A DNA stretch of 12,307 bases from Polyangium sp. 6x1 (lineage in GTDB: Bacteria; Myxococcota_A; Polyangia; Polyangiales; Polyangiaceae): assembly GCF_029946515.1 (NCBI RefSeq), contig NZ_JARZHH010000040.1:91904-104210 (forward strand), in the 5' to 3' direction. Under the pieces are notes generated by a model. The model was not told the DNA's origin. It worked only from the letters and a program-made list of their open reading frames with translations, and ran no database searches. Below are positions 1 to 12,307 of this stretch, piece by piece. Both the position numbers and the translations under genes were made by a program. The number at the start of each line of letters is the position of its first letter. Position 1 is the first letter of the stretch.

Positions 1-778
1 GAACGGGCGAGGTGCCGCCGCCATGGCAGCCAGAGTCGCCGCCGGGTGAGACGAGGACGCCAATCGTGAAATCGGCGTGCTCGCAGGTGGGCTCGTCATT
101 GCCCCAGGGCCATTTGCGTCCGTCGCCGCCGGTCGCCGCCCACTCCCATTGCGCCTCGGTGGGCAGGTCTTTCCCTTGGGCCTTGCAATACTTCTTCGCC
201 TTGTCCCAGGAGACCTCGTTGGCCGGGTGATCCGGGCGGCGAGGATAGTTCGCAAAGACTTCGAGGCTCTTCGGCGGGTCGCAGGTCTTCGCGTCGACAC
301 ACGTTTTCATGGCGGCGACGGTGACCTCGGTCTCGTCCATGCAAAACGGGCGGGTGAGGACGACGCGGTGGGGACGATCGGAGTCGGGCTGGTGCCCCTT
401 GCGGAGGCGGCGCGCGCCGCCATTCAAGGTAAAACCCTTGCCCATGACGAAGCCGTCCGGGCCGGTCTTCGGGATGTAAACCTCGCCAGCAGGGCAATGC
501 GGGACGCACGCGCCCGTGGCCTCGTCGCAGCGCTCGATCGAGGCGCAGGCGACAGCGGCGCAGCGGGAGGGCTCGGGCGGCGGCGCAAGCGAGGGGACGG
601 GCGCGGGCGCAGGCGGCAGAGAGGCCGCAGGCGCGGGCGGGGAAGGCGCGGGCGAGGCGTCCGGGGAGGAGCAAGCGGCGGCCCCGAGGAAGAGGGCCGC
701 CGCAGGGAGGAGCAGGCGCGAGGCCAAGCGCAGGAGGGAAGGATCAGTCGAGGCCGAGGCGCGCGCGGACGTCGGCAT
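1..778 (-). CDS. Partial (3'-truncated by the window edge) secreted or lipoprotein with an N-terminal signal peptide, a Pro/Ala-rich linker, a Cys-rich module and the N-terminal part of an FGE-sulfatase (formylglycine-generating enzyme / SUMF1-like) domain
   Basis: Translated by hand on the minus strand; the ORF track omits it because it has no in-window stop. From the ATG at 778 the product begins MPTSARASASTDPSLLRLASRLLLPAAALFLGAAAC|SSPDASPAPSPPAPAAS..., i.e. a signal peptide with a lipobox-like GAAAC. An alternative TTG start at 727 gives MASRLLLPAAALFLGAAAC and sits 17 nt after the upstream stop. A Cys-rich stretch follows: CAAVACASIERCDEATGACVPHCPAG. Downstream are FGE-family hallmarks: RPHRVVLTRPFCMDETEVTVAAMKTC ... 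ANEVSWDKAKKYCKAQGKDLPTEAQWEWAATGGDGRKWPWGND (compare the FGE consensus RLPTEAEWEYAARGG...YPWGN). GC3 is high throughout and the frame stays open to position 1. Confidence 0.65.
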   Translation of the reverse strand, partial: MPTSARASASTDPSLLRLASRLLLPAAALFLGAAACSSPDASPAPSPPAPAASLPPAPAPVPSLAPPPEPSRCAAVACASIERCDEATGACVPHCPAGEVYIPKTGPDGFVMGKGFTLNGGARRLRKGHQPDSDRPHRVVLTRPFCMDETEVTVAAMKTCVDAKTCDPPKSLEVFANYPRRPDHPANEVSWDKAKKYCKAQGKDLPTEAQWEWAATGGDGRKWPWGNDEPTCEHADFTIGVLVSPGGDSGCHGGGTSPV

Positions 779-3700
779 ACGCGTCGCTCACCGAGAAGAC
801 GATGAGCTCGCGAGCCTCGGCGTTGCGGCCGATCCAGGTGAGGCGCTCCTTGCCGGAGGCGGGAGGCTGGTTCGTGTGGCCGCCCGCCCAGGCGATGCCC
901 GTGAGCGCGATGTTGGGATCGCCGACCGCGAGCAAGCCCGCGCGCGCACCCCAGCCGTTCACCGCGGTGTTGAGCGTCGAGGCGCGGTTGCCGATGTTGG
1001 CGATGACGTCCGTCGCGAGCGTGCGCACCTGCGCATCGAGGTTCGCCGGGAGCGCCTTGGCGACGCGCGCCGAGGCGTCGTTGAGCTTGGCCGGGTCGAC
1101 GCCTTGCGGGGCAAACCCAGGGCTCAACGCCTTGAGGTACGCGGCGAGCAGCGGCCAGAGGTCGATCGGCGCGGTGCGCGAGAAGGCCGTGGCGTTCGCC
1201 TGGACGACCTTGAGCGCGCGGTGGACGAGGAACGAGCGAACGGCCTCGTTCGTCGAGGCCACGAGCGGCGCGCCGAGCACGATCGTCGGCGGATGCGCGC
1301 TCGCGGCGATGCACACCGAGCCGAGCGTGGACGACTGCAGCACCTTGAGATCCTCGATCCCGTAGGCGCGGGCGAGGTCCTTGATCTCCTCGGCGAGGTG
1401 CGCCTGCGGGGGCGGGAAGGGCGTCGCGCGGACCGACGTGACGTCGAACGGCACGGCGGCGTCGAGCATCGGCCCGGTGCGCTGCAGGAGGTCGCGGAAG
1501 GCCGGGGTCATCACGTCGGGAGCGAGGAGCTCGTCGAGCGCGATGTCGCCGGCCGCCGCGCCCGCGCCCGCGAGATCGACCGCGCCGCCGTCGAGGGCTA
1601 GCACGCTGCCGCGCGCGATGCGCGCGACCTCGGGCCGGCCGCGCAGATCGGCGACGGTGGCGACGGTGCTGAAGAGGTACGGCTCGAAGCGGCCGGTGCC
1701 GAGCGCGCGGCGCGCGTCGGCGACGGCACGATCGAGCAGGACGTTCGCGGCCTGCGCCTGATCGGTGCGCTGGTAGAAGCTCGCCAGCGCGCCGAGCGCG
1801 ACGTCGTCCTTGGGCCAGGTCTTGCGCGCCTGGAGCAAGGTCTGCTCGGCCTTCTTGAGGTCGCCCATCGCCTCGTAGATCTCGGCGAGCTGCGTCGTGC
1901 GACGGCACTTCGCTTCGGGCTCCTCGACGTTGTTGATGAGGATCGTCTGCTGCTCGAGGGCCTTCGCCGTGTCGCCGAGGTTCTTGTAGAGGTCGACGAG
2001 GCGCTCGCGCGCGAGCTCGTTGTTCGCGAAGCGCTTCAAGACCTCCTGGTAGGAGAGCTCGGCGCGCTCGGCGTTCGGCAGCGGGCCGTTGTAGAGGTCG
2101 CCGAGGCGCATGTAGAGCTCGGCCTGACGCTCGGGCTCCGCGACGAGGCGCGCGAGCCGGATCCAGGCCTGCTCCGCGCCGCCCCAGTCCTCTTCCCTCG
2201 CGCAGACGTCGGCGAACGCCGTCAGAGCCTCGACGTGGTCGGGGTTCTGATCGAGCGCCGCCGCGAGGGCCTGCTTCGCCGCCGCCGCGTCGCCGACGTC
2301 GGCGAGCGCGCGGCCACGCAGGACCTCCATCTCGACACGCTCGGCCGGATCCGTGACGGCGTCGAGGCGTCGTTCGAGCAGCGCCGCGAGCTCGGCCCGC
2401 GCGCCGCCGGCGACATAGATTGCCTGCAAGCGCTGGAAGACGTCGAGGTACGAGGGATCGACCGCGAAGACGCTCTCGAAGGCGCCGCGCGCTCGCTCGG
2501 TCTCGCTCGTCTTGTCGGCCCAGAGCACGGCCGCGAGGTAGAGGTTGCGCACGCGCTCCTCGGCCGTCGCGCTGGTCTGCGCGGCAGCTTCGAGCGCGGT
2601 CGCGGCGCCCACGGCGTCGCCGATCTGCTCGAGGGCGCGGGCTCGCTCGAGGTGCACCACGAGGTGACCAGGGACGAGCTCGATCGCCTTGTCGAGCAGC
2701 TCGCGGGCCTTCTCGGTTTGACCCGCGCGCGCCGCGGACTCGGCGGCGCGCAGCGAGAGCGTGGCGATCTCGGAGGCGCGCTCGGTGCGGTTCGCGAGCT
2801 CGAGATCGGCCTCGAGTGCCGTCGCCTCGTCCCCACGCGCGCGGGCATGCGCCGCCATCTGGCGGAGTGCCCAGAGCCCGCGAGGCTCGTTGCGATAGGC
2901 GATCTCGACCGGCTCGCGCGTCTCGTCCCAGCCGAGGACGCGCAGGCGCAGGCGCGCCGAGAGGTGCGCGTGCGCGATGGCCTCGGGGCCTTCGAGCGTC
3001 CTCGCGAGCGTGAAGACGACCGGCTCGAGCTCCTCGTCGCGGCCGCCCGCGATGAGGGCGCTCGCGACGCGGCGGAGCGTCGGCAGGTGCGACGGCGTCT
3101 CTTCGAGGATCGTGCGACGCCAGAGCAGGCCGCTCGCCGCGTCACCGCGGCCGAGCTCGTCGAGCTCGGCGAGGCGCTCGTACGCCTGGAGACGCTCGAC
3201 GGAATCCTCCGTCGCGCGGGCGTACTGCAAGAGGCCGTCGACGAGATCACTCGTGCCATGGCCCGCGAGCGCGGCGCGGTACGCGCAGAGCGGCGCGAGG
3301 AGCGTCTCGCCCGCAGCAATGGCCTGCCGCGCGAGGGCCGCGGCCTTCTCGAGGTCGCCGTCGCGCTCGAACTCGAGCGCGGCTTCGAGCGAGAAGCGCG
3401 CGGCATCGGGGCCCGTGGAGGCGACGGCGCGCTCGGCGCGCCAGGACGCACGATCCGCGGGACGCTCGGGCGAGAGGCGCTCGTAGAGCTCCCGCAGGCC
3501 GATGTCGTCGGGCCGCGCCGTGAGCGCCTGCGCGAGCAAGCGCGCCCCGTGCGCGGCGCCCTCCGGCGTGATGAGCGCCTCGCGCACGAAGTCGCGGGCC
3601 TGCTCGATCGGATCCTCGCTCGCCTGACGGCGGAGGTGGAGCCACTCGATGAGGCCGTCGCGATCGCCCACGCCGCGCGCCGTGCGCTCGCCGAGGTGCA

Positions 3701-5741
3701 CGGAGAGCGGGAGGCGCGCGTCGATCTCGGCCGCGCCGCGGAGGAGTTTGTCGCGCTCGTCGTCGATCGAGGTGTCGGGCACCTCGACCTCGAGCAAGCG
3801 GATCGCCGCCTCCGTGAGCAGGAGCGCGGCGCGCGTGCCCGGCTCGATCGATTGCGCGAGGCCGGCGAGGACGCTCGACGCGGTCGCGGCGTCGGCGCCG
3901 GTCGCGCGAGCGCGCGCGGCGCCTTCGTGGGCCGGATCCGACTGGCGAGCGCGATCGTACCCCTCGGCCGCGAGCTCCGCGTCGCCCGCGAGCTCGGCGA
4001 GGAGTGCGCTCGCGAGCGCGCTGTCGCGGTCCCCGTCCTCTGCGCCGCGCCACGCGGCGACGGCGCGGGCGACCTGCGCGCCGGCCTTCGACTCGAGGTC
4101 GAGCTCGAGCTTGAGCGCGCGGCCCGTGCCGCTGTCGGCGGCGTACTCGTTGTAGCCGAGGATCGCCGCGGCGAGGGCGTCGCTCTCGCCGAGGAGCTTG
4201 CCGTCGGGGCGCGCATCTCCGAGGGCGCGGCCGAGCGCGGCGGCAGCGCGCGCGTTCGGGCTGCCCGCGCCGATGACGCTGCTCGAAGTCGCGTCGGCCT
4301 CGCGGGAGGCCGCGCTCGCCGCGGCGAGCAGCGGCGCGAGCTCGTCGTCGCCCGCGGCGGCCTCCACGGCCTGCTCGAAGAGCTCGCGCGAGCCTCCGGT
4401 GAGCGCCGTCAACGAGAGGCGATCGGCAGCCGAGAACGCGATCGTGTCGCTGCCCTCGACGGCCGCGCGCGCCGCGGCGGCGTCGCCGAGCTCGATCGCG
4501 CGGGCCGCGAGGGCGCGCCGCGCGTCGGCGTCGTGCGTGCCGTCGAGCGCGCCGCGCAGGGCGTCGATCGAGCCGGGACGCGTGTCCTTGCGCGCGGCCG
4601 CGAGCATGCCCGCGAGCCAGCCCGCGCCGCCCTTGAGGGAGGCGGTGCTGTGCAGGCGCCCGAGGCTCGACACCGCGAGGGACACGTCGCCCGATTCGAG
4701 CGCCGCGCGCGCACGGAGGAGCGCGTCGTACGCGGAGACGACGCCCCGGAGGCCACGCGGCACCACGCCGCGGTGGATCGCGACCTGCGTGAACGCGTCA
4801 CGCAGCGCCGAGAGCTCGCTCGGCTCCGGCGCGCGCACCTTCGTGAACGTGTCGTCCGCGGCGCCGAGCGCCTCGCAGAAGCGCTGCACGTGCGGGCGTG
4901 GATCCGACGTGAGCGAGCGCTGGGCCAGATCCATGCGCTTCTGCGCGCCTTCCTCGTCCTCCTGGCGGATCCGCAGGACCTCGGCGCCGAGCACGGCCGC
5001 GTGGGCGCGCGCGGTCGGCGTGGGTGCGATGCGCGCCTCGGTGTCGAGCACATCGATCGTGCCTTGCCAGTCCTGGTCGCGCGCGAGCAAGCCGCGGAGC
5101 TGGCGATGCGCGAGCGGAGAGCTCGGCGCGAGCTCGCGCGCCTCGGCGGCAATCGCGCGCGCGGTCTGCTCCTCGCCTGCCATCGCGTAGATCTCGGACA
5201 CCGCCACGAGCGCTCGCGCGCGCGCGGCCTTGTCCTCCATCGCCTCCGCTTCGGCGCGCAGCCACGCGGCCCGCTCGGCCCACGCGTCGCGCTGCTGCGT
5301 GCGCACGAGGTGCGCGCTCGCGTCCTGCTCGTCGTCGAACGTGGGCGCTCCCGCGACGGGCGCGCGCTCGCGACGCGACGGCGCCGCAGGGACGTCGTCG
5401 TGGGCTTCCACCTCGGTCACGACCGCGGCCACCGGCGTCTCCACGACCGACGGCCCCGCGGGCGTGACCGCGTCGTGGGCGCTCTCCGCCGCGGCAGGCG
5501 GCGCCTTCGTCTCGTCGACGAGGGCCTCCACCAGCCCGTCCTCCTCGGGGACCGTGGGCATCTCGTGCCGCGCGTCCTCTTTCATGCGCGAGCTCATCTC
5601 GCCGATCTCGGGCTCGTTGCGGGAGTTCCGCAGCGACTGCATCAGCTCGTCGGGCACGTGCGCCATGATGGTCGCCGCGTCGTCGTCGTCGTCGTCGATC
5701 GCGTCCTCTGCGAGGTCGATCTCGTCTTCGGGCTCGCTCAC
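744..5741 (-). CDS. Giant cytoplasmic TPR-repeat protein (about 1665 aa) with an acidic Asp/Glu-rich N-terminal tail and a roughly 270-aa non-TPR C-terminal domain; paralog of the upstream TPR gene
   Basis: This is the ORF-track entry 744..6734 (-), whose first roughly 330 aa are Arg/Gly-rich junk. That junk overlaps the well-formed C-terminus of the upstream gene in another frame, so the true start is internal. The best candidate is the GTG at 5741 (MSEPEDEIDLAEDAIDDDDDDAATIMAHVPDEL...), preceded by a strong SD, GGAGCAAAGGA (minus-strand reading of 5752-5762). GC3 also drops locally across 5742-5773 (codons tct gga gca aag gat caa), consistent with non-coding spacer. The alternative is the GTG at 5777, overlapping the upstream TGA as GTGA. 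The body is classic TPR (many A/L/E/R-rich 34-aa repeats, e.g. AELYMRLGDLYNGPLPNAERAELSYQEVLKRFANNELARERLVDLYKNLGDTAKALEQ). The product ends ...ERLTWIGRNAEARELIVFSVSDAYADVRARLGLD, with TGA at 744-746. Confidence 0.75.
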   Translation of the reverse strand: MSEPEDEIDLAEDAIDDDDDDAATIMAHVPDELMQSLRNSRNEPEIGEMSSRMKEDARHEMPTVPEEDGLVEALVDETKAPPAAAESAHDAVTPAGPSVVETPVAAVVTEVEAHDDVPAAPSRRERAPVAGAPTFDDEQDASAHLVRTQQRDAWAERAAWLRAEAEAMEDKAARARALVAVSEIYAMAGEEQTARAIAAEARELAPSSPLAHRQLRGLLARDQDWQGTIDVLDTEARIAPTPTARAHAAVLGAEVLRIRQEDEEGAQKRMDLAQRSLTSDPRPHVQRFCEALGAADDTFTKVRAPEPSELSALRDAFTQVAIHRGVVPRGLRGVVSAYDALLRARAALESGDVSLAVSSLGRLHSTASLKGGAGWLAGMLAAARKDTRPGSIDALRGALDGTHDADARRALAARAIELGDAAAARAAVEGSDTIAFSAADRLSLTALTGGSRELFEQAVEAAAGDDELAPLLAAASAASREADATSSSVIGAGSPNARAAAALGRALGDARPDGKLLGESDALAAAILGYNEYAADSGTGRALKLELDLESKAGAQVARAVAAWRGAEDGDRDSALASALLAELAGDAELAAEGYDRARQSDPAHEGAARARATGADAATASSVLAGLAQSIEPGTRAALLLTEAAIRLLEVEVPDTSIDDERDKLLRGAAEIDARLPLSVHLGERTARGVGDRDGLIEWLHLRRQASEDPIEQARDFVREALITPEGAAHGARLLAQALTARPDDIGLRELYERLSPERPADRASWRAERAVASTGPDAARFSLEAALEFERDGDLEKAAALARQAIAAGETLLAPLCAYRAALAGHGTSDLVDGLLQYARATEDSVERLQAYERLAELDELGRGDAASGLLWRRTILEETPSHLPTLRRVASALIAGGRDEELEPVVFTLARTLEGPEAIAHAHLSARLRLRVLGWDETREPVEIAYRNEPRGLWALRQMAAHARARGDEATALEADLELANRTERASEIATLSLRAAESAARAGQTEKARELLDKAIELVPGHLVVHLERARALEQIGDAVGAATALEAAAQTSATAEERVRNLYLAAVLWADKTSETERARGAFESVFAVDPSYLDVFQRLQAIYVAGGARAELAALLERRLDAVTDPAERVEMEVLRGRALADVGDAAAAKQALAAALDQNPDHVEALTAFADVCAREEDWGGAEQAWIRLARLVAEPERQAELYMRLGDLYNGPLPNAERAELSYQEVLKRFANNELARERLVDLYKNLGDTAKALEQQTILINNVEEPEAKCRRTTQLAEIYEAMGDLKKAEQTLLQARKTWPKDDVALGALASFYQRTDQAQAANVLLDRAVADARRALGTGRFEPYLFSTVATVADLRGRPEVARIARGSVLALDGGAVDLAGAGAAAGDIALDELLAPDVMTPAFRDLLQRTGPMLDAAVPFDVTSVRATPFPPPQAHLAEEIKDLARAYGIEDLKVLQSSTLGSVCIAASAHPPTIVLGAPLVASTNEAVRSFLVHRALKVVQANATAFSRTAPIDLWPLLAAYLKALSPGFAPQGVDPAKLNDASARVAKALPANLDAQVRTLATDVIANIGNRASTLNTAVNGWGARAGLLAVGDPNIALTGIAWAGGHTNQPPASGKERLTWIGRNAEARELIVFSVSDAYADVRARLGLD
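5679..5696. repeat. Perfect (GTC)6 trinucleotide microsatellite, reading (GAC)6 on the coding strand and encoding Asp6
   Basis: Plus-strand 5679-5696 is gtcgtcgtcgtcgtcgtc. On the minus strand it encodes the DDDDDD run in the acidic N-terminal tail of the second TPR protein (...AEDAIDDDDDDAATIM...). Confidence 0.9.
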
Positions 5742-5773
5742 GGGGCTTTGATCCTTTGCTCCAGAGTCGTCGC
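5742..5773 (-). promoter_or_regulatory. Short intercistronic spacer between the two TPR genes carrying a Shine-Dalgarno-like GGAGCAAAGGA
   Basis: On the minus strand it reads ...CGG TGA gcgacgactctGGAGCAAAGGAtcaaagcccc GTG AGC GAG CCC GAA GAC.... GGAG and AAGGA lie about 10 nt before the GTG at 5741. A/T-containing third positions occur only here. This implies tight operonic linkage or translational coupling of the two TPR genes. Confidence 0.45.
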
Positions 5774-8700
5774 TCACCGGACACCCATGCCGAGCTTCTT
5801 GCGCAGCTCGAGGTAGCTGGGGGAAAGCACGAACGAGAGAAGGCGGCGCGAGCGCTCGTTCTCGGTGACCACCGAGCCGAGCTGATCCCGCGGCACGTTC
5901 ACGATGTCGCTCAGCACGATCGAGACGTCGCCGGCGGCGATCACCGCCATGCGATCCAGGCTGCGCCGCGCCGCGTTCGTCCACGCGCGCGCGTCCTGCT
6001 TGCTCGACACGACCTTCTGGCAGACCTCGCCGATGCTCTTGCGGATCTTGCGCGAGATCTCCTTGTGCACCGCGCGCTGGATCTCGCCGTAGACCGCGTA
6101 CCCGGGGTTCGCGACCTTGATGTCGACCTCGTTGCACGCCGCGATGACCACGGACGCGACCGTGGCCTCGTCGCGCGTGCGGAGCGAGGTGATCCCGCGC
6201 CGCAGGGCGAAGACCGTCCGCGCGATGGCCGAGCGCGCTGCCGCGTCGAGCGGCGCCGTGATCCCGGACCCGATGACGATCGCGGGCACCTCGCCGGCGA
6301 CGCCGTGCACGCCCTTCGGCTCGGGGCCGCCGACGTAGAGCTCGAAGTCGCCCTCGAAGCCCACCGCGCCCATCCACTCGGCGACCGCCACGCGCAGCGG
6401 GTGGCCGCCGCGCGAGTCGACGCGCTCCTTCTTGCCGACGTTCAGCGAGCCGAGCGTCGGGCCGAGCGCGAGCGTCACCGTCTCGGCCATGAGCACGAAG
6501 AGCTCCGCGATCGGGCCGTTGTCCTCCGGATCGGCGATCTCGGCCATGGCCTTCGCGTCGAGCACGATCTGGGGCCGCGTCGCGACGCGACCGTCGATCC
6601 GCTTGAGCTCCGTGGAGATCGCGTCGTCGTCGCGGCCGAGCGAGACCAGGCAGCCGAGCGTCGCCTGCCGGAGCGCCGCGTCCTGCCCTGCCTGCGCGAT
6701 CTTCGCGAGCCGCTCGACGCGGTCGGCGTCGCACGGATCCTCGGACAGCTTCTGCACGAGCACGCTCTTCGCGCGGCCGAGCAGACGCTGGCGGAGCGAC
6801 GCCTCGTAGCTCGTGGTGAGCACGAGATCGAGCGCCTCGCCGTCGTCCGGCGACTCGTCGAGCAGCTTCACGACCGAGGACTCGGCCTTGAGCGGCTCGT
6901 TGACCTTGTCGCGCCAGATGGCCATCGCGAGCCGCGCGGCCTCCATGCGACCCTCGCGCTTGTCGCGCTCCTGCATGAGCTGCTCGAGGATCGCCGTCGC
7001 GCGCGTCCAGGCGCCCGTCTTCGCCGCGACGCGCGCGAGGCGCTCGCGCACGGGCGGCGTGGACAGGCCCGCCTCGTGGAGACCCACGAGCACCTTGAGC
7101 GCCTTCTCCGGGGCGTTCAGCTTGTTCTCGTAGATGTCCACCGCCGCGACGCCGGACATCAGCCGCTGCTGCGCCGGCGCCTCACCGATGACCGAGAGCC
7201 GGCCGAGCAGATCGGCCGCCTCGGCGAACTTGCCCATCGTGATCGAGATCTCGCCGGCGAGCGCGAGCGCGCCGACGTGGTCGGGCTCGAGCATCGTGAC
7301 GTTCTCGAGCGCCGAGAGCGCGCCCTCCCGATCGCCCTTCTTGCGGAGCACGCGCGCGCGCTCCCAGAAGAGCTTGCCGATCTCCGCCTCGTCGTCGGCG
7401 ACGTCGAGGCGGCGCCCGATGATGTCGAGCAGCTTGTCGTCCTCGTTGCGCGAACGTACGCGACGGAAGAGTTTGTCGAAGGCGACGCTCCGGCTCGGAT
7501 CCCGATCGAACGCGCGGGCGAACGCGATCTCCGCGTCGTCGTGCGCGTCGGTGTGCTCGAGCAGGATGACACCCGCCGACTCCCAGAACGCCGCGCCGCG
7601 CCCGTCGTCCTTGCTGAGGGCGCCGAGCTGCGCGAGCGAGAGCGCCGTGGAGACGTGATCGCCGAGCGCCTCGCTCGCGGCACGCACGCCCTCCCACGAC
7701 ACGATGTCGTCCTGGCGACGCTCGACGGCCGCGCGGAAGGTGGCGAGCGCCGCCTCCACGTTGCCCGCCGCGAGCTCCGACCAGCCCGAGAGCGCCGACG
7801 CGTCGCTGCCCGCCTCCTCGCCGAGCGCGCCGCCCACGTGCTGCAGGGCGAACGCGCGGCGGCGCGGATCGCAGCCGGGCATCGCGAGCTCCAGGTTCGC
7901 GAGGCGCGTCGCGTCCGACGTCCCCGCGAGCAAGGGCTGCGGCGTGCTCGGCTGATCGAGCATCGCGACGAGCGCGGCCGACGCTTCCATCGCCGACCAT
8001 GGCTCGTCGTCGAGGAACGCGCCCACCGCGCGGCGCGCGGCCACCTCGGCGTCGCGATCCTTCGCGGTGAGCGACGCGCCGAGCCACTCGAGCGCGGCGT
8101 AGAGCTTCGGCTCCGCGTCTGCCCAGGCCGCCGCGCGCGACACCGCCGCGCCCGGATCCTGATCGACCACGCGCGCCAGCCGGAACGCCTCGGCGCGGGC
8201 GATCGCCGTCGCCTCGTCGCCCTGATCCTCGAGCCGATCGAGCGCGCGATCGATCGCGGCCCGGTCACTCTGCGCATCAGGCCACGTCAGGCGCGCGAGC
8301 CCCGCGGCGACCGTGATGTCGCCCGAGCCCTCGGCCTCCGCCGTCTCCAGCGCCGTGAGCGCCTCGGCACGATCGCCCGCCTCGCCCTGGCCGACCTCCA
8401 GGCCGAAGCGCTCGATCGCGATGCTCGCCGGATCCGCGCCCGCCTCCGCTGCCGTGAGCAGCGCGCGGCGACGACCGTCGAGGCTGTCCGGATCGGCCCC
8501 GCGCAGCGCCCACGCGAGCAGCGCCGCGGCCGCCTTCGACGCGCTGCCGCGCGCCTGCTCGATGAGCTCGATCGTCTTCTGCCGATCGCCGATCCGCCAC
8601 GTGAGAAGCGCAGCTTCCAGGTAGAGCGCGGCGCCGAGCTCGATGTCCTCGGTCATCGTCGCGCACGTCGACAGGATGTTCGACGCGGCCGCGAGGTCCC

Positions 8701-10534
8701 CCGCGCGGCGCTCGAGCTCCACGAGGAAGAGCGCGACCACCTCGTCCGACGGGGACGCCTCGTGCAGCTCGCGCAGGCGCGCGCGCGCCTGGTCGACGTT
8801 GCCCGAGCGCGTGCTGCGCAGTGCAGCGACCACCCAGAGGCCCCGCGCGAGGTTCGGGTCCGTCTCGACCTTCGCGAGCTCCTCGATCGTCGACGCGATT
8901 GGCCGGACCGCGATCACCTCGCCCGGCGCGGCCTTCTTCGCGCCGAGCGCGTACGCCGCGAGCACGCGGCCGAGCCACATCGAGGCGTCGCCGTCGAGCA
9001 TCGCGAGCTTCGCAAACGCCTCGGCCGCGCCGTCGGCGTCGCCCCGGATCGCGCGGCTCCGACCGAGCTCGAACCAGAGGCTCGCCTCTTCGCCCGGCTC
9101 CGCGCCGCTCGCGACGAGCTCCGCCGTCACCTGCTCGTACCACGCCGCGTCGCCGCGGACGGAGGCGAGGGTGCGGGCGATCCGCGCGAGCAGCGGGCCC
9201 GGCGTACCGAGCGCCGCGGCCCGACCGATCGCCGCCTTCGCGGCGTCCGAGTCGCCGGCCTGGCAAGCCCACACGTAGGCCGCGATGATCTCCGCGCGCG
9301 CCTTCGCGTCGTTCGTCGGGCACGACGCGCCCGACGCTTCGAGCGATCGCGCGAGCGCCGCCGGATCCTGCGCGTCGCTCAGCAGATCGAGCTCGAGCGC
9401 GCGCGCCATGATCGACGCCGGGTCGGCTTCGAGCGCGCTGCGCAGCGCTGCGAGGGCGCCGTCCCGGTCGTTGTCGAGCATCGCCGCCTCGGCGATGCGC
9501 AGCCAGAGCGCCGCCGCGGCCGGGCCCGGGGCGCCTCGCGCGAGCTCGGCCCGCGCGAGATCCGCCGCGCCCTTCGCGTCGCCGTTCGCCTCGAGCGACG
9601 CGAGCCGCGAGCGCGCGATGACCGACGACTGCGGCAGCTGCTCGGCGGCACGCGAGAGCAGCTTCACCCAGCCCTCTTGATCACCCGCGCGCCGCTTCAG
9701 CTCTGCCGCGCGCAGCCATGCGTCGGCCGCGTACTCCGCGCGCCGCGCGAAGCGGGGCACGCCGCTCGCGTCGCCGCGCCCTTCGTCCTCGAGGGCCTCC
9801 TCGATGAGCTGCGCTTGCCCTTCGAGGGCCCGCGCGAGCGCCGTCGGGTTGTCCTCGCGCGCCGCGATCGCTTCGAGCGTCACCTGCGACCGGAAACGGC
9901 CCTGACCATCCAGCGCGGCGGCCGCGTCGATCAGATCGTACGCGCGCTGCGCGTCGCCGGCCTTGGCCGACAGCTCCGCGAGCTCGATGAACAGGAACGC
10001 CTTCCACGTCGGATCGTTCGCGAGCTCGGCGCGCGCTTCGATGGCGCGCATGCGGCCGGGCAGATCCCCGTCCTTCGCCGCGATGAGCTCGAGCTCGAGC
10101 CACGGCGTCGGGTCCTCGGGGCTCGCGCTCACGGCCTCTTCGAGCGCTTCTTTCGCGCCCGGAAGATTTTGCTCGTAGTCCTGCAAGAACGCGGCGCGCT
10201 CCCAGAACGCGCGTGCGCGCTCCTCCGCGGTCACGGAGGCGCGTGTCAGCGCTTCGAGCAGCTTCCCGAGGTTCTTGATCGACTTGCGCCGGGTCAGGAT
10301 CCGGACGAGGGCCTCGAGCGGCTCGCGGTTCTGCGGATCCGCGTTGAACGCCGCGAGGTAGTCCCGCGCGGCGGACGGCTCCTCCCCGTGCTTCTCCTCG
10401 AGGACGCCGGACTCGTGCAGGAGCAGGGCTTGGAGCGCCTTGTCCTCCTGCGCGGCGTGCTCGGACCGTAAACGATTGAGGAAGGCCGCCGCATCCTCGG
10501 CCTGGCCCGTGGGCATGGGTGTCTCTACCGTCAT
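5774..10534 (-). CDS. Giant cytoplasmic TPR-repeat protein (about 1587 aa) with a roughly 270-aa non-TPR C-terminal domain; paralog of the downstream TPR gene
   Basis: This is the ORF-track entry 5774..10690 (-). It is TPR-like throughout (AARDYLAAFNADPQNREPLEALVRIL..., KGDREGALSALENVTMLEPDHVGALALAGEISITMGKFAEAADLLGRL...). The C-terminus, ...ERSRRLLSFVLSPSYLELRKKLGMGVR, is collinear with the C-terminus of the downstream protein, so a real stop is expected here. That argues against a single frameshifted gene. The start is uncertain. I prefer the ATG at 10534 (MTVETPMPTGQAEDAAAFLNRL...), which has GGGAGG 13 nt upstream (10548-10553 on the minus strand). In-frame alternatives are the ATG at 10516, ATG at 10576, ATG at 10666 and the GTG at 10690 (ORF-track start). 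Codons between 10540 and 10620 show depressed GC3 (tta, cgt, ttg, gct, agt, cat, gca), suggesting leader rather than coding sequence. Confidence 0.75.
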   Translation of the reverse strand: MTVETPMPTGQAEDAAAFLNRLRSEHAAQEDKALQALLLHESGVLEEKHGEEPSAARDYLAAFNADPQNREPLEALVRILTRRKSIKNLGKLLEALTRASVTAEERARAFWERAAFLQDYEQNLPGAKEALEEAVSASPEDPTPWLELELIAAKDGDLPGRMRAIEARAELANDPTWKAFLFIELAELSAKAGDAQRAYDLIDAAAALDGQGRFRSQVTLEAIAAREDNPTALARALEGQAQLIEEALEDEGRGDASGVPRFARRAEYAADAWLRAAELKRRAGDQEGWVKLLSRAAEQLPQSSVIARSRLASLEANGDAKGAADLARAELARGAPGPAAAALWLRIAEAAMLDNDRDGALAALRSALEADPASIMARALELDLLSDAQDPAALARSLEASGASCPTNDAKARAEIIAAYVWACQAGDSDAAKAAIGRAAALGTPGPLLARIARTLASVRGDAAWYEQVTAELVASGAEPGEEASLWFELGRSRAIRGDADGAAEAFAKLAMLDGDASMWLGRVLAAYALGAKKAAPGEVIAVRPIASTIEELAKVETDPNLARGLWVVAALRSTRSGNVDQARARLRELHEASPSDEVVALFLVELERRAGDLAAASNILSTCATMTEDIELGAALYLEAALLTWRIGDRQKTIELIEQARGSASKAAAALLAWALRGADPDSLDGRRRALLTAAEAGADPASIAIERFGLEVGQGEAGDRAEALTALETAEAEGSGDITVAAGLARLTWPDAQSDRAAIDRALDRLEDQGDEATAIARAEAFRLARVVDQDPGAAVSRAAAWADAEPKLYAALEWLGASLTAKDRDAEVAARRAVGAFLDDEPWSAMEASAALVAMLDQPSTPQPLLAGTSDATRLANLELAMPGCDPRRRAFALQHVGGALGEEAGSDASALSGWSELAAGNVEAALATFRAAVERRQDDIVSWEGVRAASEALGDHVSTALSLAQLGALSKDDGRGAAFWESAGVILLEHTDAHDDAEIAFARAFDRDPSRSVAFDKLFRRVRSRNEDDKLLDIIGRRLDVADDEAEIGKLFWERARVLRKKGDREGALSALENVTMLEPDHVGALALAGEISITMGKFAEAADLLGRLSVIGEAPAQQRLMSGVAAVDIYENKLNAPEKALKVLVGLHEAGLSTPPVRERLARVAAKTGAWTRATAILEQLMQERDKREGRMEAARLAMAIWRDKVNEPLKAESSVVKLLDESPDDGEALDLVLTTSYEASLRQRLLGRAKSVLVQKLSEDPCDADRVERLAKIAQAGQDAALRQATLGCLVSLGRDDDAISTELKRIDGRVATRPQIVLDAKAMAEIADPEDNGPIAELFVLMAETVTLALGPTLGSLNVGKKERVDSRGGHPLRVAVAEWMGAVGFEGDFELYVGGPEPKGVHGVAGEVPAIVIGSGITAPLDAAARSAIARTVFALRRGITSLRTRDEATVASVVIAACNEVDIKVANPGYAVYGEIQRAVHKEISRKIRKSIGEVCQKVVSSKQDARAWTNAARRSLDRMAVIAAGDVSIVLSDIVNVPRDQLGSVVTENERSRRLLSFVLSPSYLELRKKLGMGVR

Positions 10535-10770
10535 TGGGCTCGACGCGCCTCCCGCGGAGACGGGGTTCTGGACCATTGCATGCTGCGTGGGGAGACTAGC
10601 CAAACGGTGCGTCGGGAGTAAAGCGTGCTCGCGACGGATCGCGACGATCGCGCGCGCCGCCGCCATGCGCGGGCATTCCCGCGCGAGCACGTTCGCCGCG
10701 GCTGCCCCGATCCGTGGGCGAAAGCCCCGCGCCGGGCGCCCGTGGGGGCCCTGCCCGGTCCGCCCGCTCG

Positions 10771-10900
10771 CTCAGAGGGTGTTCCACAGGCTGCTGCGCG
10801 GCTCGATGCGTCGGTCGGCCTCGCTCGACGTACGGTGTACGCCTCGCTCGGCCTCCCTAGCCTCGAGCCGCTCGCGACGCCTGTGGAACACCCTCTCAGG
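10771..10900. repeat. Long-range inverted repeat: 21-nt arms with one mismatch, separated by 87 nt
   Basis: The left arm at 10771-10791 is ctcagagggtgttccacaggc. The right arm at 10879-10900 is gcctgtggaacaccctctcagg. The arms are reverse complements over 18 contiguous nt (gcctgtggaacaccctct), extending to 20/21 with a single G/C mismatch. Each arm contains TGTTCCACA or TGTGGAACA (TGT-N3-ACA). The spacer holds a smaller palindrome, cgtacGGTgtacg (10828-10840). The TGA stop (10896-10898 on the minus strand) of the PHA_gran_rgn-like gene lies inside the right arm. No T-tract follows either arm on either strand. Confidence 0.7.
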
Positions 10901-11192
10901 CCTTGCCGAGCATCGCGTCGAGCTTCTCGTGCAGCTTCGACTCCACCACCGGGCGCATCGGGCGAAGCAAGAGCGGCAGCTCCACCCGGATCCGCACGGC
11001 CTCCGCGGTCACGCGCACCGACCCTCGCGTTCCCTTCGCGGGCCCGCTCGGCGCGTCGAGGCAGAGCTCGTCGCCTTCCCAGCGCCAGCGCACCCCACGC
11101 CGCTTCTCCAGCCGCCTCGCCAGATCCTCCGCGCGCCGCCGCGCCGCGTCCTGGCTCATGCCGTGGGGCCTCTGGATGTCGATCTGCGCCAT
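10896..11192 (-). CDS. Small (98 aa) protein of the PHA_gran_rgn family (putative polyhydroxyalkanoic acid system protein, TIGR02610-like)
   Basis: The ORF is MAQIDIQRPHGMSQDAARRRAEDLARRLEKRRGVRWRWEGDELCLDAPSGPAKGTRGSVRVTAEAVRIRVELPLLLRPMRPVVESKLHEKLDAMLGKA. Its length and the pattern MxxIDIxRxHxLxxdeARxraExLAxxLxxkyGvxxxWeGdeLxfd..Gv.G.vxVtaexvxvxvxLglLLxpmrxxiexxixexLd match my memory of that family. A good SD, GAGGGGA (11201-11207 on the minus strand), lies about 8 nt upstream of the ATG at 11192. GC3 is high. Confidence 0.7.
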   Translation of the reverse strand: MAQIDIQRPHGMSQDAARRRAEDLARRLEKRRGVRWRWEGDELCLDAPSGPAKGTRGSVRVTAEAVRIRVELPLLLRPMRPVVESKLHEKLDAMLGKA

Positions 11193-11220
11193 CGCGTCCG
11201 TCCCCTCTGCCGTCGTGGCC

Positions 11221-11814
11221 TTACTCGACCCGCTGCACGATCCAGTAGCCGCGCGGCGTGTCCACCACTTCGCTCACCGCGCCCTTGGCCAGGCTGAAGA
11301 GAACATACTCCGGCGCGGGCTCCAAAATTCCGCGCGGCAGCCGCCCCGCGTTCTCCATCGAGCCCTTGTCGCCCTTCGCCACCGCCGCCTTGAAGTCCGT
11401 CTTCGCCTCCTCGGCGAGCTGCTTGGCGAGCGTCAGCGCCTCCTCGCGGGGCCGCGCGTTCGTCGGCGCGCCCTGAGCGCCCTTGTACTGCACGAGGATC
11501 ACCCCGAAGATCACGGACTTCGGCGCCTCACCCGCGAGCGGCGGCGGCGCCTCTCCCGTGAGGAGCAACGTCCCGCCCGCGTCGACCGGTCCCGTCGGCT
11601 CCGCCTCGCCGCCGGGCTCCCCGCTCGCGCCCGCGTCCGAGGGCTCCGCGCCTGCGTCGGCGCTCGCCGTCGCGCCCGCGTCGCTCGTCGTGCCCGCGTC
11701 GGCCGTGGCGGCGTCGGTGGAAGTGCTTCCGCGGCGACCGGCTGCCGGAATGACGACGAGCGCGATGGCCCCGAGGACCAGCACGGCGAAGAGGAAGGCG
11801 GTCGCTTTCTGCAT
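11221..11814 (-). CDS. Membrane-anchored parvulin-type peptidyl-prolyl cis-trans isomerase (PpiC/PrsA-like), 197 aa
   Basis: The N-terminal hydrophobic anchor or signal is MQKATAFLFAVLVLGAIALVVIPAAG. A low-complexity Ala/Asp/Gly/Thr/Glu linker follows. The C-terminal roughly 95 aa match the parvulin rotamase fold pattern: SVIFGVILVQYKGAQGAPTNARPREEALTLAKQLAEEAKTDFKAAVAKGDKGSMENAGRLPRGILEPAPEYVLFSLAKGAVSEVVDTPRGYWIVQRVE (compare ASHILVKyKGs..ap...Rs.eEA..lAeel...l.aGadF..lAkkySdcpSak.GGdLGwf.rGqmvpeFe.aaFaL..GevS.pveT.fGyHIIk). The stop is TAA at 11221-11223. The next gene starts 28 nt downstream on the same strand, which suggests an operon. Confidence 0.7.
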   Translation of the reverse strand: MQKATAFLFAVLVLGAIALVVIPAAGRRGSTSTDAATADAGTTSDAGATASADAGAEPSDAGASGEPGGEAEPTGPVDAGGTLLLTGEAPPPLAGEAPKSVIFGVILVQYKGAQGAPTNARPREEALTLAKQLAEEAKTDFKAAVAKGDKGSMENAGRLPRGILEPAPEYVLFSLAKGAVSEVVDTPRGYWIVQRVE

Positions 11815-12006
11815 GGGGCGAGCGCGTTAGCACATTTCCCCGGCCCAGCGGAAGCGCGCGACGAATCCGCGCCGCTCGTCCGCTCGTTGCCCCCCGCGCT
11901 CGCGCGCCCTCGTCGTGTCGCAAAAGAGCCGCGAAGCCTCAAACCCTGGTAGAAGTGACCAACGCGGAACGATCGCGCGCCCCAGGGCCCCTCGAAGGCA
12001 TGAGCA
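11815..12006. promoter_or_regulatory. Divergent intergenic region (192 bp) presumably carrying promoters for the minus-strand PPIase/PHA_gran_rgn operon and the plus-strand zinc-ribbon gene
   Basis: It is the only sizeable non-coding stretch flanked by divergently oriented starts. A weak extended -10-like TGgTAGAAG lies at 11947-11955, about 50 nt before the plus-strand ATG. I cannot recognise a confident sigma70 or sigma54 consensus by eye. Confidence 0.3.
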
Positions 12007-12307
12007 TGGTCAAGGTCGAGTGCGACTCCTGTAAGTCGCCGTACGCGGTGGAGGAACGACGGATCCCGGCGACGGGGCTCAAGATGCGCTGCTCGAAATG
12101 CGGCACCAGCATCTTGGTGAAGAAGCCCGCGGCGCCGGCGGCGGGCCTCGGAGATGGCGAGGAGATCGATCTCCCCTCGCCGGTCGCGCCGCGCGCGAAG
12201 GGCGGCACGGAGCCGCTCCTCCCGCGCCCCGCGCCGGGCAAGGCGCCGGCCGCGCCGCTCGCGCCGAAGCCGCCCGTGCTCCCCGCCGCCAAGCCGAAGC
12301 CCGCCGC
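12007..12307 (+). CDS. Partial (3'-truncated by the window edge) protein with an N-terminal MJ0042-family CxxC...CxxC zinc-ribbon followed by a Pro/Lys/Ala-rich low-complexity region
   Basis: Translated by hand; absent from the ORF track because it has no in-window stop. The product reads MVKVECDSCKSPYAVEERRIPATGLKMRCSKCGTSILVKKPAAPAAGLGDGEEIDLPSPVAPRAKGGTEPLLPRPAPGKAPAAPLAPKPPVLPAAKPKPA.... It has two CxxC pairs, CDSC and CSKC, 18 residues apart with an aromatic-x-V pattern, as in TIGR02098-type zinc ribbons that are very common in myxobacteria. An SD, GAAGG (11995-11999), lies 7 nt upstream of the ATG at 12007. An alternative ATG at 12001 has only 1-nt spacing. Confidence 0.6.

Follow-up and report, generated by a model that had tools for sequence, protein, structure and literature searches.

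What do two adjacent giant genes in the myxobacterium Polyangium sp. 6x1 encode, and what is the domain that both of their products carry at the C-terminal end? The window analysed here, a stretch of 12,307 nucleotides from contig NZ_JARZHH010000040.1, has a GC content of 71-77%, and its protein identity to Polyangium genomes is 95-98%. Two long open reading frames (ORFs) on the minus strand span positions 744-10690 and contain the genes, here called A and B, in agreement with a preliminary description of this DNA that had placed two co-directional giant genes in this region. Gene A (5774..10534, minus strand), as defined by the ORF and its translation, starts with an ATG at 10534, ends with a stop codon at 5774-5776 and encodes 1586 residues. 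In most loci, the alignment of its orthologues begins at residue 1. Gene B (744..5777, minus strand) encodes 1677 residues from a GTG that overlaps the end of A, or 1665 residues from the annotated GTG at 5741 (744-5741). The shorter B protein matches WP_281331023.1 from Polyangium sp. 6x1 exactly, and the only name of that record is "hypothetical / tetratricopeptide repeat protein". The A protein (isoelectric point, pI, 4.96) consists of an alpha-solenoid resembling tetratricopeptide repeats (TPR), followed by a C-terminal domain that we refer to as a pseudo-M48 domain, and the B protein (pI 4.88) contains an acidic, probably disordered N-terminus in front of the same two parts. With a probability of roughly 60%, we consider A and B to be ancient paralogues that form a conserved two-gene module of the Polyangiaceae, in which the solenoids and a pair of dead M48-type domains act as a paired binding scaffold.

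Paralogy and conservation of the gene pair

A comparison of the whole proteins with BLASTP yields a single weak segment, residues 987-1090 of A against 1070-1173 of B, with 33% identity and an E-value of 4e-4, which recovers the TPR-region alignment given in the preliminary description. This segment of A (7265..7576, minus strand) has the strongest pairwise similarity to B and is placed inside the best-conserved part of A (residues 1001-1200). The last 308 residues of the two proteins are 22% identical over 185 residues (BLASTP, E 2e-5). As these pairwise scores are modest, family profiles were built, and homologue searches with the C-terminal 318 residues of each protein identified 119 and 56 proteins. 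When the C-terminal family profiles of A and B were aligned with hhalign, they matched over 503 columns with a probability of 98.9% and an E-value of 1.6e-17, so that the similarity of the C-termini is above background both pairwise and by profile. The full-length representatives, taken from a search with hidden Markov models (2,415 matches, of which the best ones were examined), split cleanly into an A type with a median length of 1592 residues and a B type with a median of 1819 residues. The full-length profiles of 49 A and 38 B proteins were aligned by hhalign over 1434 columns with a probability of 100% and an E-value of 4.6e-56.

Could the shared C-terminal domain instead be an artefact of TPR periodicity or composition, with A and B as unrelated neighbours? 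Both proteins are rich in Ala, Leu and Arg and come from a high-GC genome, and the one weak BLASTP segment would fit with such an explanation. However, the full-length hhalign alignment is collinear, pairing A 20-1584 with B 159-1665, while off-register alignments of the TPR repeats are much weaker (~1e-25), and the C-terminal profiles match in their own right. Furthermore, both domains are modelled confidently with the same non-TPR alpha/beta architecture, as described below. The profile alignments and the structure models together rule this explanation out, and we give it next to no weight. By the profile comparisons, A and B are unambiguously paralogous over almost their entire length, with an extra N-terminal extension in B, and the paralogy goes beyond TPR periodicity, as the preliminary description had claimed. 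The same comparisons indicate that the tandem duplication of a giant repeat protein is real and ancient, and the related loci show that it has been kept as a pair.

When one genome was scanned for each species, 201 relatives were identified. The best 80 of the 201 are labelled Polyangium, Sorangium, Chondromyces, Minicystis, Byssovorax or Polyangiaceae, or are metagenome-assembled genomes (MAGs) of unclassified Myxococcales or "delta proteobacterium". Among 82 loci that were compared, A is followed by B in 75, and the contigs of the remaining seven end too soon to tell. There is one A-B locus per listed genome record, except for one MAG with two near-identical contigs, and a search with the most divergent homologue (P0119) added one further fragment only. 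The sole invariant linkage is that of A with B.

Several proteins of 315-505 residues on long contigs appeared to be stand-alone copies of the C-terminal domain, which would have placed it independently of TPR arrays, a possibility raised in the preliminary description. They arise where frameshifts in long-read assemblies split the gene calls. Broken gene calls of A and B are seen in long-read MAGs, for example at 6601-11509 of locus L001 and at 8899-16182 of locus L002. Apparent fusions of A with B, such as P0226, are read-through artefacts.

The two genes meet in the sequence GTGA (5774..5777, minus strand), where the TGA stop codon of A overlaps a GTG at which B probably begins in reality, as indicated by the sequence and by the comparison across loci. 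A start codon in the frame of B overlaps the stop codon of A in 78 of 81 loci, 58 of which contain GTGA and 20 ATGA. The ATGA junctions are built with A-ending last codons of gene A (cgA, agA, aaA and acA), and such codons are expected to be uncommon in genomes this rich in GC. The peptide that follows the overlapping start in the B frame is alike across loci (V/M-S/T-D/N/K...), and the frame is open back to the stop codon of A in 68 of 74 loci. A 4-nt overlap of A and B was also given independently by the gene caller in a distant lineage (L084). Judging from this pattern, B most probably starts at 5777 and is 1677 residues long, which adds 12 residues (VSDDSGAKDQSP) to the protein that starts at 5741 in the annotation of WP_281331023.1. 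The gap of about 32 nt that the preliminary description had reported between the genes results from the annotated GTG at 5741 and disappears with the start at 5777. The overlap suggests that A and B are probably translationally coupled.

Fold and catalytic site of the C-terminal domains

The C-terminal domains, assigned here as M48/HtpX-like zincin-fold domains without the catalytic residues, correspond to residues 1379-1586 of A (5777..6400, minus strand) and residues 1444-1665 of B (747..1412, minus strand). That they belong to no sequence family, as the preliminary description had supposed, is borne out by the searches: no model in Pfam or NCBIfam extends over the last ~300 residues of A or B, and searches against the sequences in PDB, with single sequences and with the B-family profile, gave insignificant matches only, for example to TssM at an E-value of 0.06. 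The AlphaFold2 models, which were built from the family alignments, are nevertheless confident, with a pLDDT (predicted local distance difference test) score of 94.8 and a predicted template modelling (pTM) score of 0.92 for the A domain, and with 94.6 and 0.93, respectively, for the B domain. The preliminary description had read the domain as alternating hydrophobic beta-like segments, whereas both models are mostly helical and contain about 12 helices and a sheet of three to four strands. The core that they share consists of a helix, three short strands, a helix of 16 residues and then a helical subdomain.

The best structure matches of the A model are 3cqb (HtpX; score 7.6), projannalysin (7.1) and 3c37 (6.3), followed by BlaR1, proabylysin, BepA, M32 and Ste24. 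The models thus contain the zincin/gluzincin core fold, with its backing helix, three-stranded sheet, active-site helix and helical C-subdomain. A Foldseek search of the PDB with the B model found nothing significant, and M48 entries were obtained at E-values of 0.9-3. The structural check proposed in the preliminary description therefore gave confident models with an M48-like fold, but not a significant Foldseek match for B. The family profiles were also aligned by hhalign with two genuine M48 proteins, encoded in loci L073 and L075. The match is weak, with P-values of 0.003 for A and 0.04 for B, and pairs "..FELYVGG" with "..VELYCVS" and "aW..aA..SlDR.A.vAaGDvs" with "aWmrYAELSADRvGLLvCDDfd", that is, a pattern of ...ELY.V... 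and W..A..S.DR.A..A.GD against W..YAELSADRVGLLVCDD. Weak as it is, this alignment agrees with the fold result. On the evidence of the models, each of the C-terminal domains, ~210 residues in length, is predicted to have the fold of the M48/HtpX-type zinc metallopeptidases. The domain is new as a sequence family but has a known fold, of which it seems to be a variant without catalytic activity.

The HExxH motif that binds the metal in these peptidases is absent from A and B, and their C-terminal domains contain no canonical catalytic motif, which agrees with the preliminary description, where no HExxH, Walker or kinase motif had been seen. HExxH is found in one of 318 family sequences, as a chance occurrence far from the helix at the active-site position, and at the aligned helix in none. 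From the order and spacing of the secondary-structure elements, the helix at the HExxH position is predicted to consist of residues 1431-1447 in A (AAARSAIARTVFALRRG; 6194..6244, minus strand) and residues 1499-1514 in B (EAVRSFLVHRALKVVQ; 1200..1247, minus strand). The two helices are in ungapped register with each other in the BLASTP alignment of A with B. Within the helices, the HExxH equivalents were placed by the spacing from the preceding strand and by an invariant glycine eight residues after the first position, a spacing for which we take the HELGHWKLGH of Ste24 as the model. In A, the putative equivalent is R1439-T1440-V-F-A1443, followed by the invariant G1447. Across 49 A orthologues, the first position is Arg in 44, the second is Glu in 37 but Thr in the A protein of the window, the fifth is Ala in 40, and G1447 is present in all 49, with no His at these sites. 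The putative equivalent in B is H1507-R1508-A-L-K1511, and across 38 orthologues residue 1507 varies (Leu in 12, His in 10 and Val in eight), while R1508 is conserved in all 38 and K1511 in 35. In the weak hhalign alignment, the Glu that serves as the third ligand in M48 peptidases (the E..ADR motif) falls on a variable Arg, Leu or Thr in A (residue 1523) and on Asn in B (residue 1595). Downstream of this position, the D-R of the motif is kept in A and the R in B, so that R1528 is present in 49 of 49 and R1600 in 38 of 38 orthologues.

The places of the two histidines, the catalytic Glu and the third-ligand Glu thus appear to be taken in A by R-E/T-x-x-A ... R/L/T and in B by L/H/V-R-x-x-K ... 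N. Neither domain has a His or a Cys among the residues that are conserved in at least 85% of the orthologues. Each has instead about 10 conserved Arg residues, with one Lys in addition in B, and the cores of the domains are basic, with pI values of 9.8 and 8.8, within acidic proteins (pI ~4.9). By this residue inventory, neither domain has a plausible metal-binding set, whatever the register of the helix, and both are likely to be catalytically dead pseudopeptidases. That the domains are active peptidases with a non-canonical catalytic site might be argued from the zincin-like fold that they have kept and from the Glu that follows the first-His equivalent in 37 of the 49 A orthologues. This Glu is, however, an invariant Arg in B as well as the Thr of the window A, the putative site of the third ligand varies in A and is occupied by Asn in B, and conserved His and Cys residues are lacking, as is HExxH at the aligned helix. 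We consider an active enzyme highly unlikely.

A proposed binding scaffold

The remainder of both proteins is mostly solenoid. Residues 1-1378 of A (6401..10534, minus strand) are assigned to a helical-repeat, TPR-like solenoid by Pfam matches, internal repeats and conservation, with scores of 36.5 bits for TPR_19 (cut-off 25) and 34.8 bits for ARM_TT21_5th (cut-off 27.8). Residues 159-1443 of B (1413..5267, minus strand) form the corresponding solenoid, which is collinear with A 20-1378 in the hhalign alignment and matches the Pfam models TPR_14 (27.9 bits, cut-off 23.5), TPR_8 (26.7, cut-off 25.7) and TPR_17 (24.8, cut-off 24.4). The TPR label of the preliminary description holds to the extent that these Pfam models score above their cut-offs, but the matches to the TPR clan are weak, scattered and just over the threshold. 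They cover little of either solenoid, the remainder being called TPR-like from the internal-repeat signal alone, and NCBIfam gave sub-threshold TPR-type matches only. Conservation among orthologues is even along the solenoids, with few gaps, and peaks at residues 1001-1200 of A and 1101-1200 of B. The stretch where A and B are most alike (window 7265-7576 and 2223-2534, minus strand) is TPR-like and lies ~400-500 residues before the C-terminal domain. Since the region of A 1001-1200 and B 1101-1200, rather than the C-terminal domain, is best conserved among orthologues and is also where the two proteins are most alike, a key interaction surface may be located there.

The N-terminal extension of B, of ~170 residues (5268..5777, minus strand), is acidic and of low complexity, and has no counterpart in A according to hhalign. 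In the window, it has a pI of 4.1 and contains 41 Asp and Glu residues versus 12 Lys and Arg residues. Elsewhere it varies in length from 100 to 440 residues, with 14-22% Pro and 14-23% Asp plus Glu. Short conserved motifs are present within it (...IMAHVPDELMQSLR... and ...EDGLVEALVDE...), and the motifs that recur across loci are ...A(K/H)(I/V)P(D/E)EL... and the acidic ...ALLD.LF(D/E)... Its composition suggests that the extension is disordered, and it is probably a tail that carries linear motifs.

No signal peptide or segment resembling a transmembrane helix was seen when the sequences of A and B were inspected, which suggests that both proteins are cytoplasmic. For the same reason, an envelope "anchor" role for the C-terminal domain, as had been proposed in the preliminary description, is unlikely. 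A protease fold without its chemistry remains under selection in these proteins, with a conserved arginine-rich surface. From the pairing of probably co-translated paralogues, the solenoids, the selected dead protease fold, the arginine-rich surface and the cytoplasmic location, we infer a heteromeric scaffold. A and B would be made together by translational coupling and would form a heteromeric cytoplasmic scaffold, the solenoids of which may recruit partner proteins. By analogy with BepA, the dead peptidase domains could act as clamps, with the old substrate cleft gripping a peptide segment, extended or acidic, and leaving it uncut.

BepA (YfgC) is the closest mechanistic analogue, in that its substrate is held by the edge strand of the peptidase domain. 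In the published account, BepA is presented as an M48 peptidase fused to TPR, with an edge strand that contacts the substrate and holds it independently of protease activity, and with an assembly-promoting role (PMC8423444). However, BepA is a periplasmic and catalytically competent protein of ~490 residues, in which the peptidase is N-terminal to a short TPR domain, while A and B lack a signal peptide, are apparently dead, are longer than 1,580 residues and have the reverse domain order. The NCBIfam model for BepA scores 12.9 bits (cut-off 570), with weak matches in the TPR region only. The known M48 peptidases (HtpX, BepA, Ste24/ZMPSTE24 and Oma1), the related M56 peptidases (BlaR1) and the minigluzincins (proabylysin and projannalysin) are relatives by fold. 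Unlike the M48 peptidases, A and B contain no HExxH and no third-ligand Glu, do not match PF01435 at E <= 10, and have conserved Arg, Lys or Ala at the putative ligand positions. Their domain is soluble and C-terminal to a solenoid of 1,400 residues, whereas the known members are membrane-embedded or periplasmic. Apart from the fold, A and B differ from BepA and the M48 peptidases in every feature by which membership was judged. They resemble pseudoproteases in general in that the fold is kept, the catalytic residues are lost and purifying selection acts across a bacterial family, but differ from them in that the site seems to be lost from the two paralogues alike and that the replacement residues are not the same in both. 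Literature searches found no description of the A/B family, of a dead M48-like domain on a giant solenoid, or of an M48-like domain in GltI, the gliding-motility protein discussed below.

Three points weigh against this interpretation. Pfam searches with 28 family members at E <= 10 revealed no recurrent family and no M48. The register of the helix at the HExxH position follows from helix order and spacing, and hhalign did not align this helix reliably. Finally, the gene neighbourhood beyond A-B is only partly conserved and carries no functional signal.

Neighbouring genes and the comparison with GltI

In the window, A is preceded by a gene for a small protein of 98 residues from the PHA_gran_rgn family (10896..11192, minus strand; PF09650, E 1.2e-23) and by a gene for a parvulin-type peptidyl-prolyl isomerase (PPIase) with a hydrophobic N-terminal segment (11221..11814, minus strand; Pfam Rotamase, E 7e-7). 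A divergent Zn-ribbon protein, identified by Pfam, is encoded on the plus strand from 12000 to 12307 and runs past the end of the window. Downstream of B, an ORF that resembles a lipoprotein gene (..LFLGAAAC..) contains an FGE-sulfatase domain according to Pfam (1-727, minus strand) and is cut by the edge of the window. A non-coding gap of 361 nt (10535-10895) separates the PHA_gran_rgn gene from the start of A, so that A-B may have its own promoter and may not be co-transcribed with the PPIase and PHA_gran_rgn genes. A scan for the sigma-70 consensus found no match anywhere in the window, and the scan for promoters and terminators was uninformative.

The PPIase gene is located upstream of A in 67 of the 82 loci and the PHA_gran_rgn gene in 48. 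A Zn-ribbon gene is present in 59 of the 82 loci and missing from distant lineages that keep A-B. In Polyangium fumosum, its product has a length of ~1,459 residues (L003, ~4922 to 540 on the minus strand of that locus). It consists of a Zn-ribbon of the MJ0042 type, an extended stretch rich in proline that carries about ten "FGEIDLP(S/A)P" repeats, a single transmembrane helix and ~800 residues of TPR. Two distant loci that were inspected have atpD-atpC upstream. Another distant lineage, L084, has wholly different neighbours, with def on the upstream side and, downstream, a MacB ABC system, and yet A-B is kept with its 4-nt overlap. The preliminary description had proposed that neighbourhoods across Myxococcota be compared for a conserved linkage with the FGE lipoprotein. 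This gene accompanies the pair in five of the 82 loci, all from close Polyangium relatives, and it is for that reason outside the module. When the ORFs downstream of B were clustered across loci, no universally conserved neighbour was found, six-frame ORFs being noisy at high GC. Two distant loci (L073 with an ORF offset of 17681 and L075 with one of 19395, both on the minus strand) contain a gene for a genuine M48 peptidase (GHE[IL]GH, ELSADR and THPYSPLR). This gene follows some kb after B, on the strand opposite to it, and its product has a C-terminal extension with repeated "..VALADG/ALADR.." segments.

These neighbourhoods also bear on whether the A-B pair could be a module of accessory or mobile character, for instance a toxin system or one for anti-phage defence. 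Some defence systems are known to contain giant TPR proteins that have protease-like domains. However, PADLOC gave no match and hence no membership of a defence family, the pair has a stable chromosomal place across genera beside the PPIase gene, and beside atpD-atpC in the two loci mentioned, and it is present as one locus per listed genome record, bar the one MAG, with no mobility genes nearby. A defence or toxin module is therefore barely credible.

The preliminary description had named AgmK/GltI as an analogy. A more specific functional claim, and one that is compatible with the structural description of A and B, is that the pair is a paralogous copy of GltI (AgmK), the cytoplasmic scaffold of the gliding-motility machinery, and that it organises a Glt-like or other envelope-spanning machine. 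The Zn-ribbon, transmembrane and TPR neighbour, which is GltJ-like in architecture, would then possibly be part of this machine. GltI is a cytoplasmic TPR protein of 3,822 residues with an unassigned "substantial helical C-terminal domain", and the FHA domain of GltG is its predicted binding partner (PMC11761067). The homologue in Sorangium cellulosum So ce56 is split into the adjacent genes sce2920 (1774 residues) and sce2921 (2081 residues) within the glt cluster (PMC3169522, supplementary file 5). In Myxococcus, gltI adjoins gltJ, which encodes a Zn-ribbon membrane protein. By description, GltI/AgmK (MXAN_4863) is thus like A and B a TPR protein of giant size that lacks a signal peptide and has an uncharacterised, largely helical C-terminal domain, and its split form in So ce56, two adjacent genes for proteins of ~1,800-2,100 residues, has the same layout and size range as A and B. 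The location of GltI beside the gene for a Zn-ribbon membrane protein is likewise comparable with that of A-B in the 59 loci where the neighbour combines a Zn-ribbon, a disordered region, a transmembrane helix and TPR. In addition, an FHA domain is fused to the last 420 residues of A in one metagenomic contig.

The fusion protein (P0007; L083, 71-1651) is encoded on a single metagenome contig of 2.3 kb, on which a B-type gene follows with the usual 4-nt overlap.

This contig may be chimeric, or it may represent a genuine variant. Against a link to GltI, the A/B orthologues in So ce56 are located at ~0.87 Mb (L022; NC_010162.1, roughly 865.9-876.7 kb), far from sce2920/21 by gene numbering, and thus at a different Sorangium locus without flanking glt genes. 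No glt or agl genes are found within 10 kb in any locus inspected. The neighbours of A and B are not gltG, gltH or gltJ, but PPIase, PHA_gran_rgn, atpD/atpC, the Zn-ribbon, transmembrane and TPR protein, def and the MacB ABC system. The NCBIfam models for gliding proteins do not match A or B, and the one for GltJ reaches 29 bits (cut-off 450) on the neighbour, where it matches nothing but the Zn-ribbon. The absence of the Zn-ribbon neighbour from distant lineages that keep A-B also argues against a link to GltI. On balance, we find it doubtful that the pair is a copy of GltI. An equally tentative variant of the paired scaffold is that A and B are the cytoplasmic platform of an undescribed, Polyangiaceae-specific machine and a sister of the split GltI pair, with the dead M48 domains docking short acidic motifs. 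Candidate docking motifs would be those in the disordered tail of B or the roughly ten "FGEIDLP" repeats in the cytoplasmic region of the Zn-ribbon neighbour.

The A-B pair, with a length of ~9.8 kb, is kept across the sampled genera of Polyangiaceae and in many MAGs, and it has been annotated as just "TPR repeat" or "hypothetical". The dead M48-type assignment would be the first structural assignment for this family, and it defines a putative pseudopeptidase domain that the current Pfam and NCBIfam models miss, while the conserved start/stop overlap corrects the annotated start of B. A paired scaffold with dead M48-type domains predicts that no zinc is bound, that nothing is cleaved, that a peptide is bound in the old cleft, and that A and B form a complex. 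Taken without a link to GltI, these results are a solid advance in annotation though not in function, and no surprise. If the link to GltI is true, they would bear on the cytoplasmic side of the myxobacterial gliding machine, and if the C-terminal domain of GltI is the same pseudopeptidase, they would also offer research on motility a structural way into GltI.

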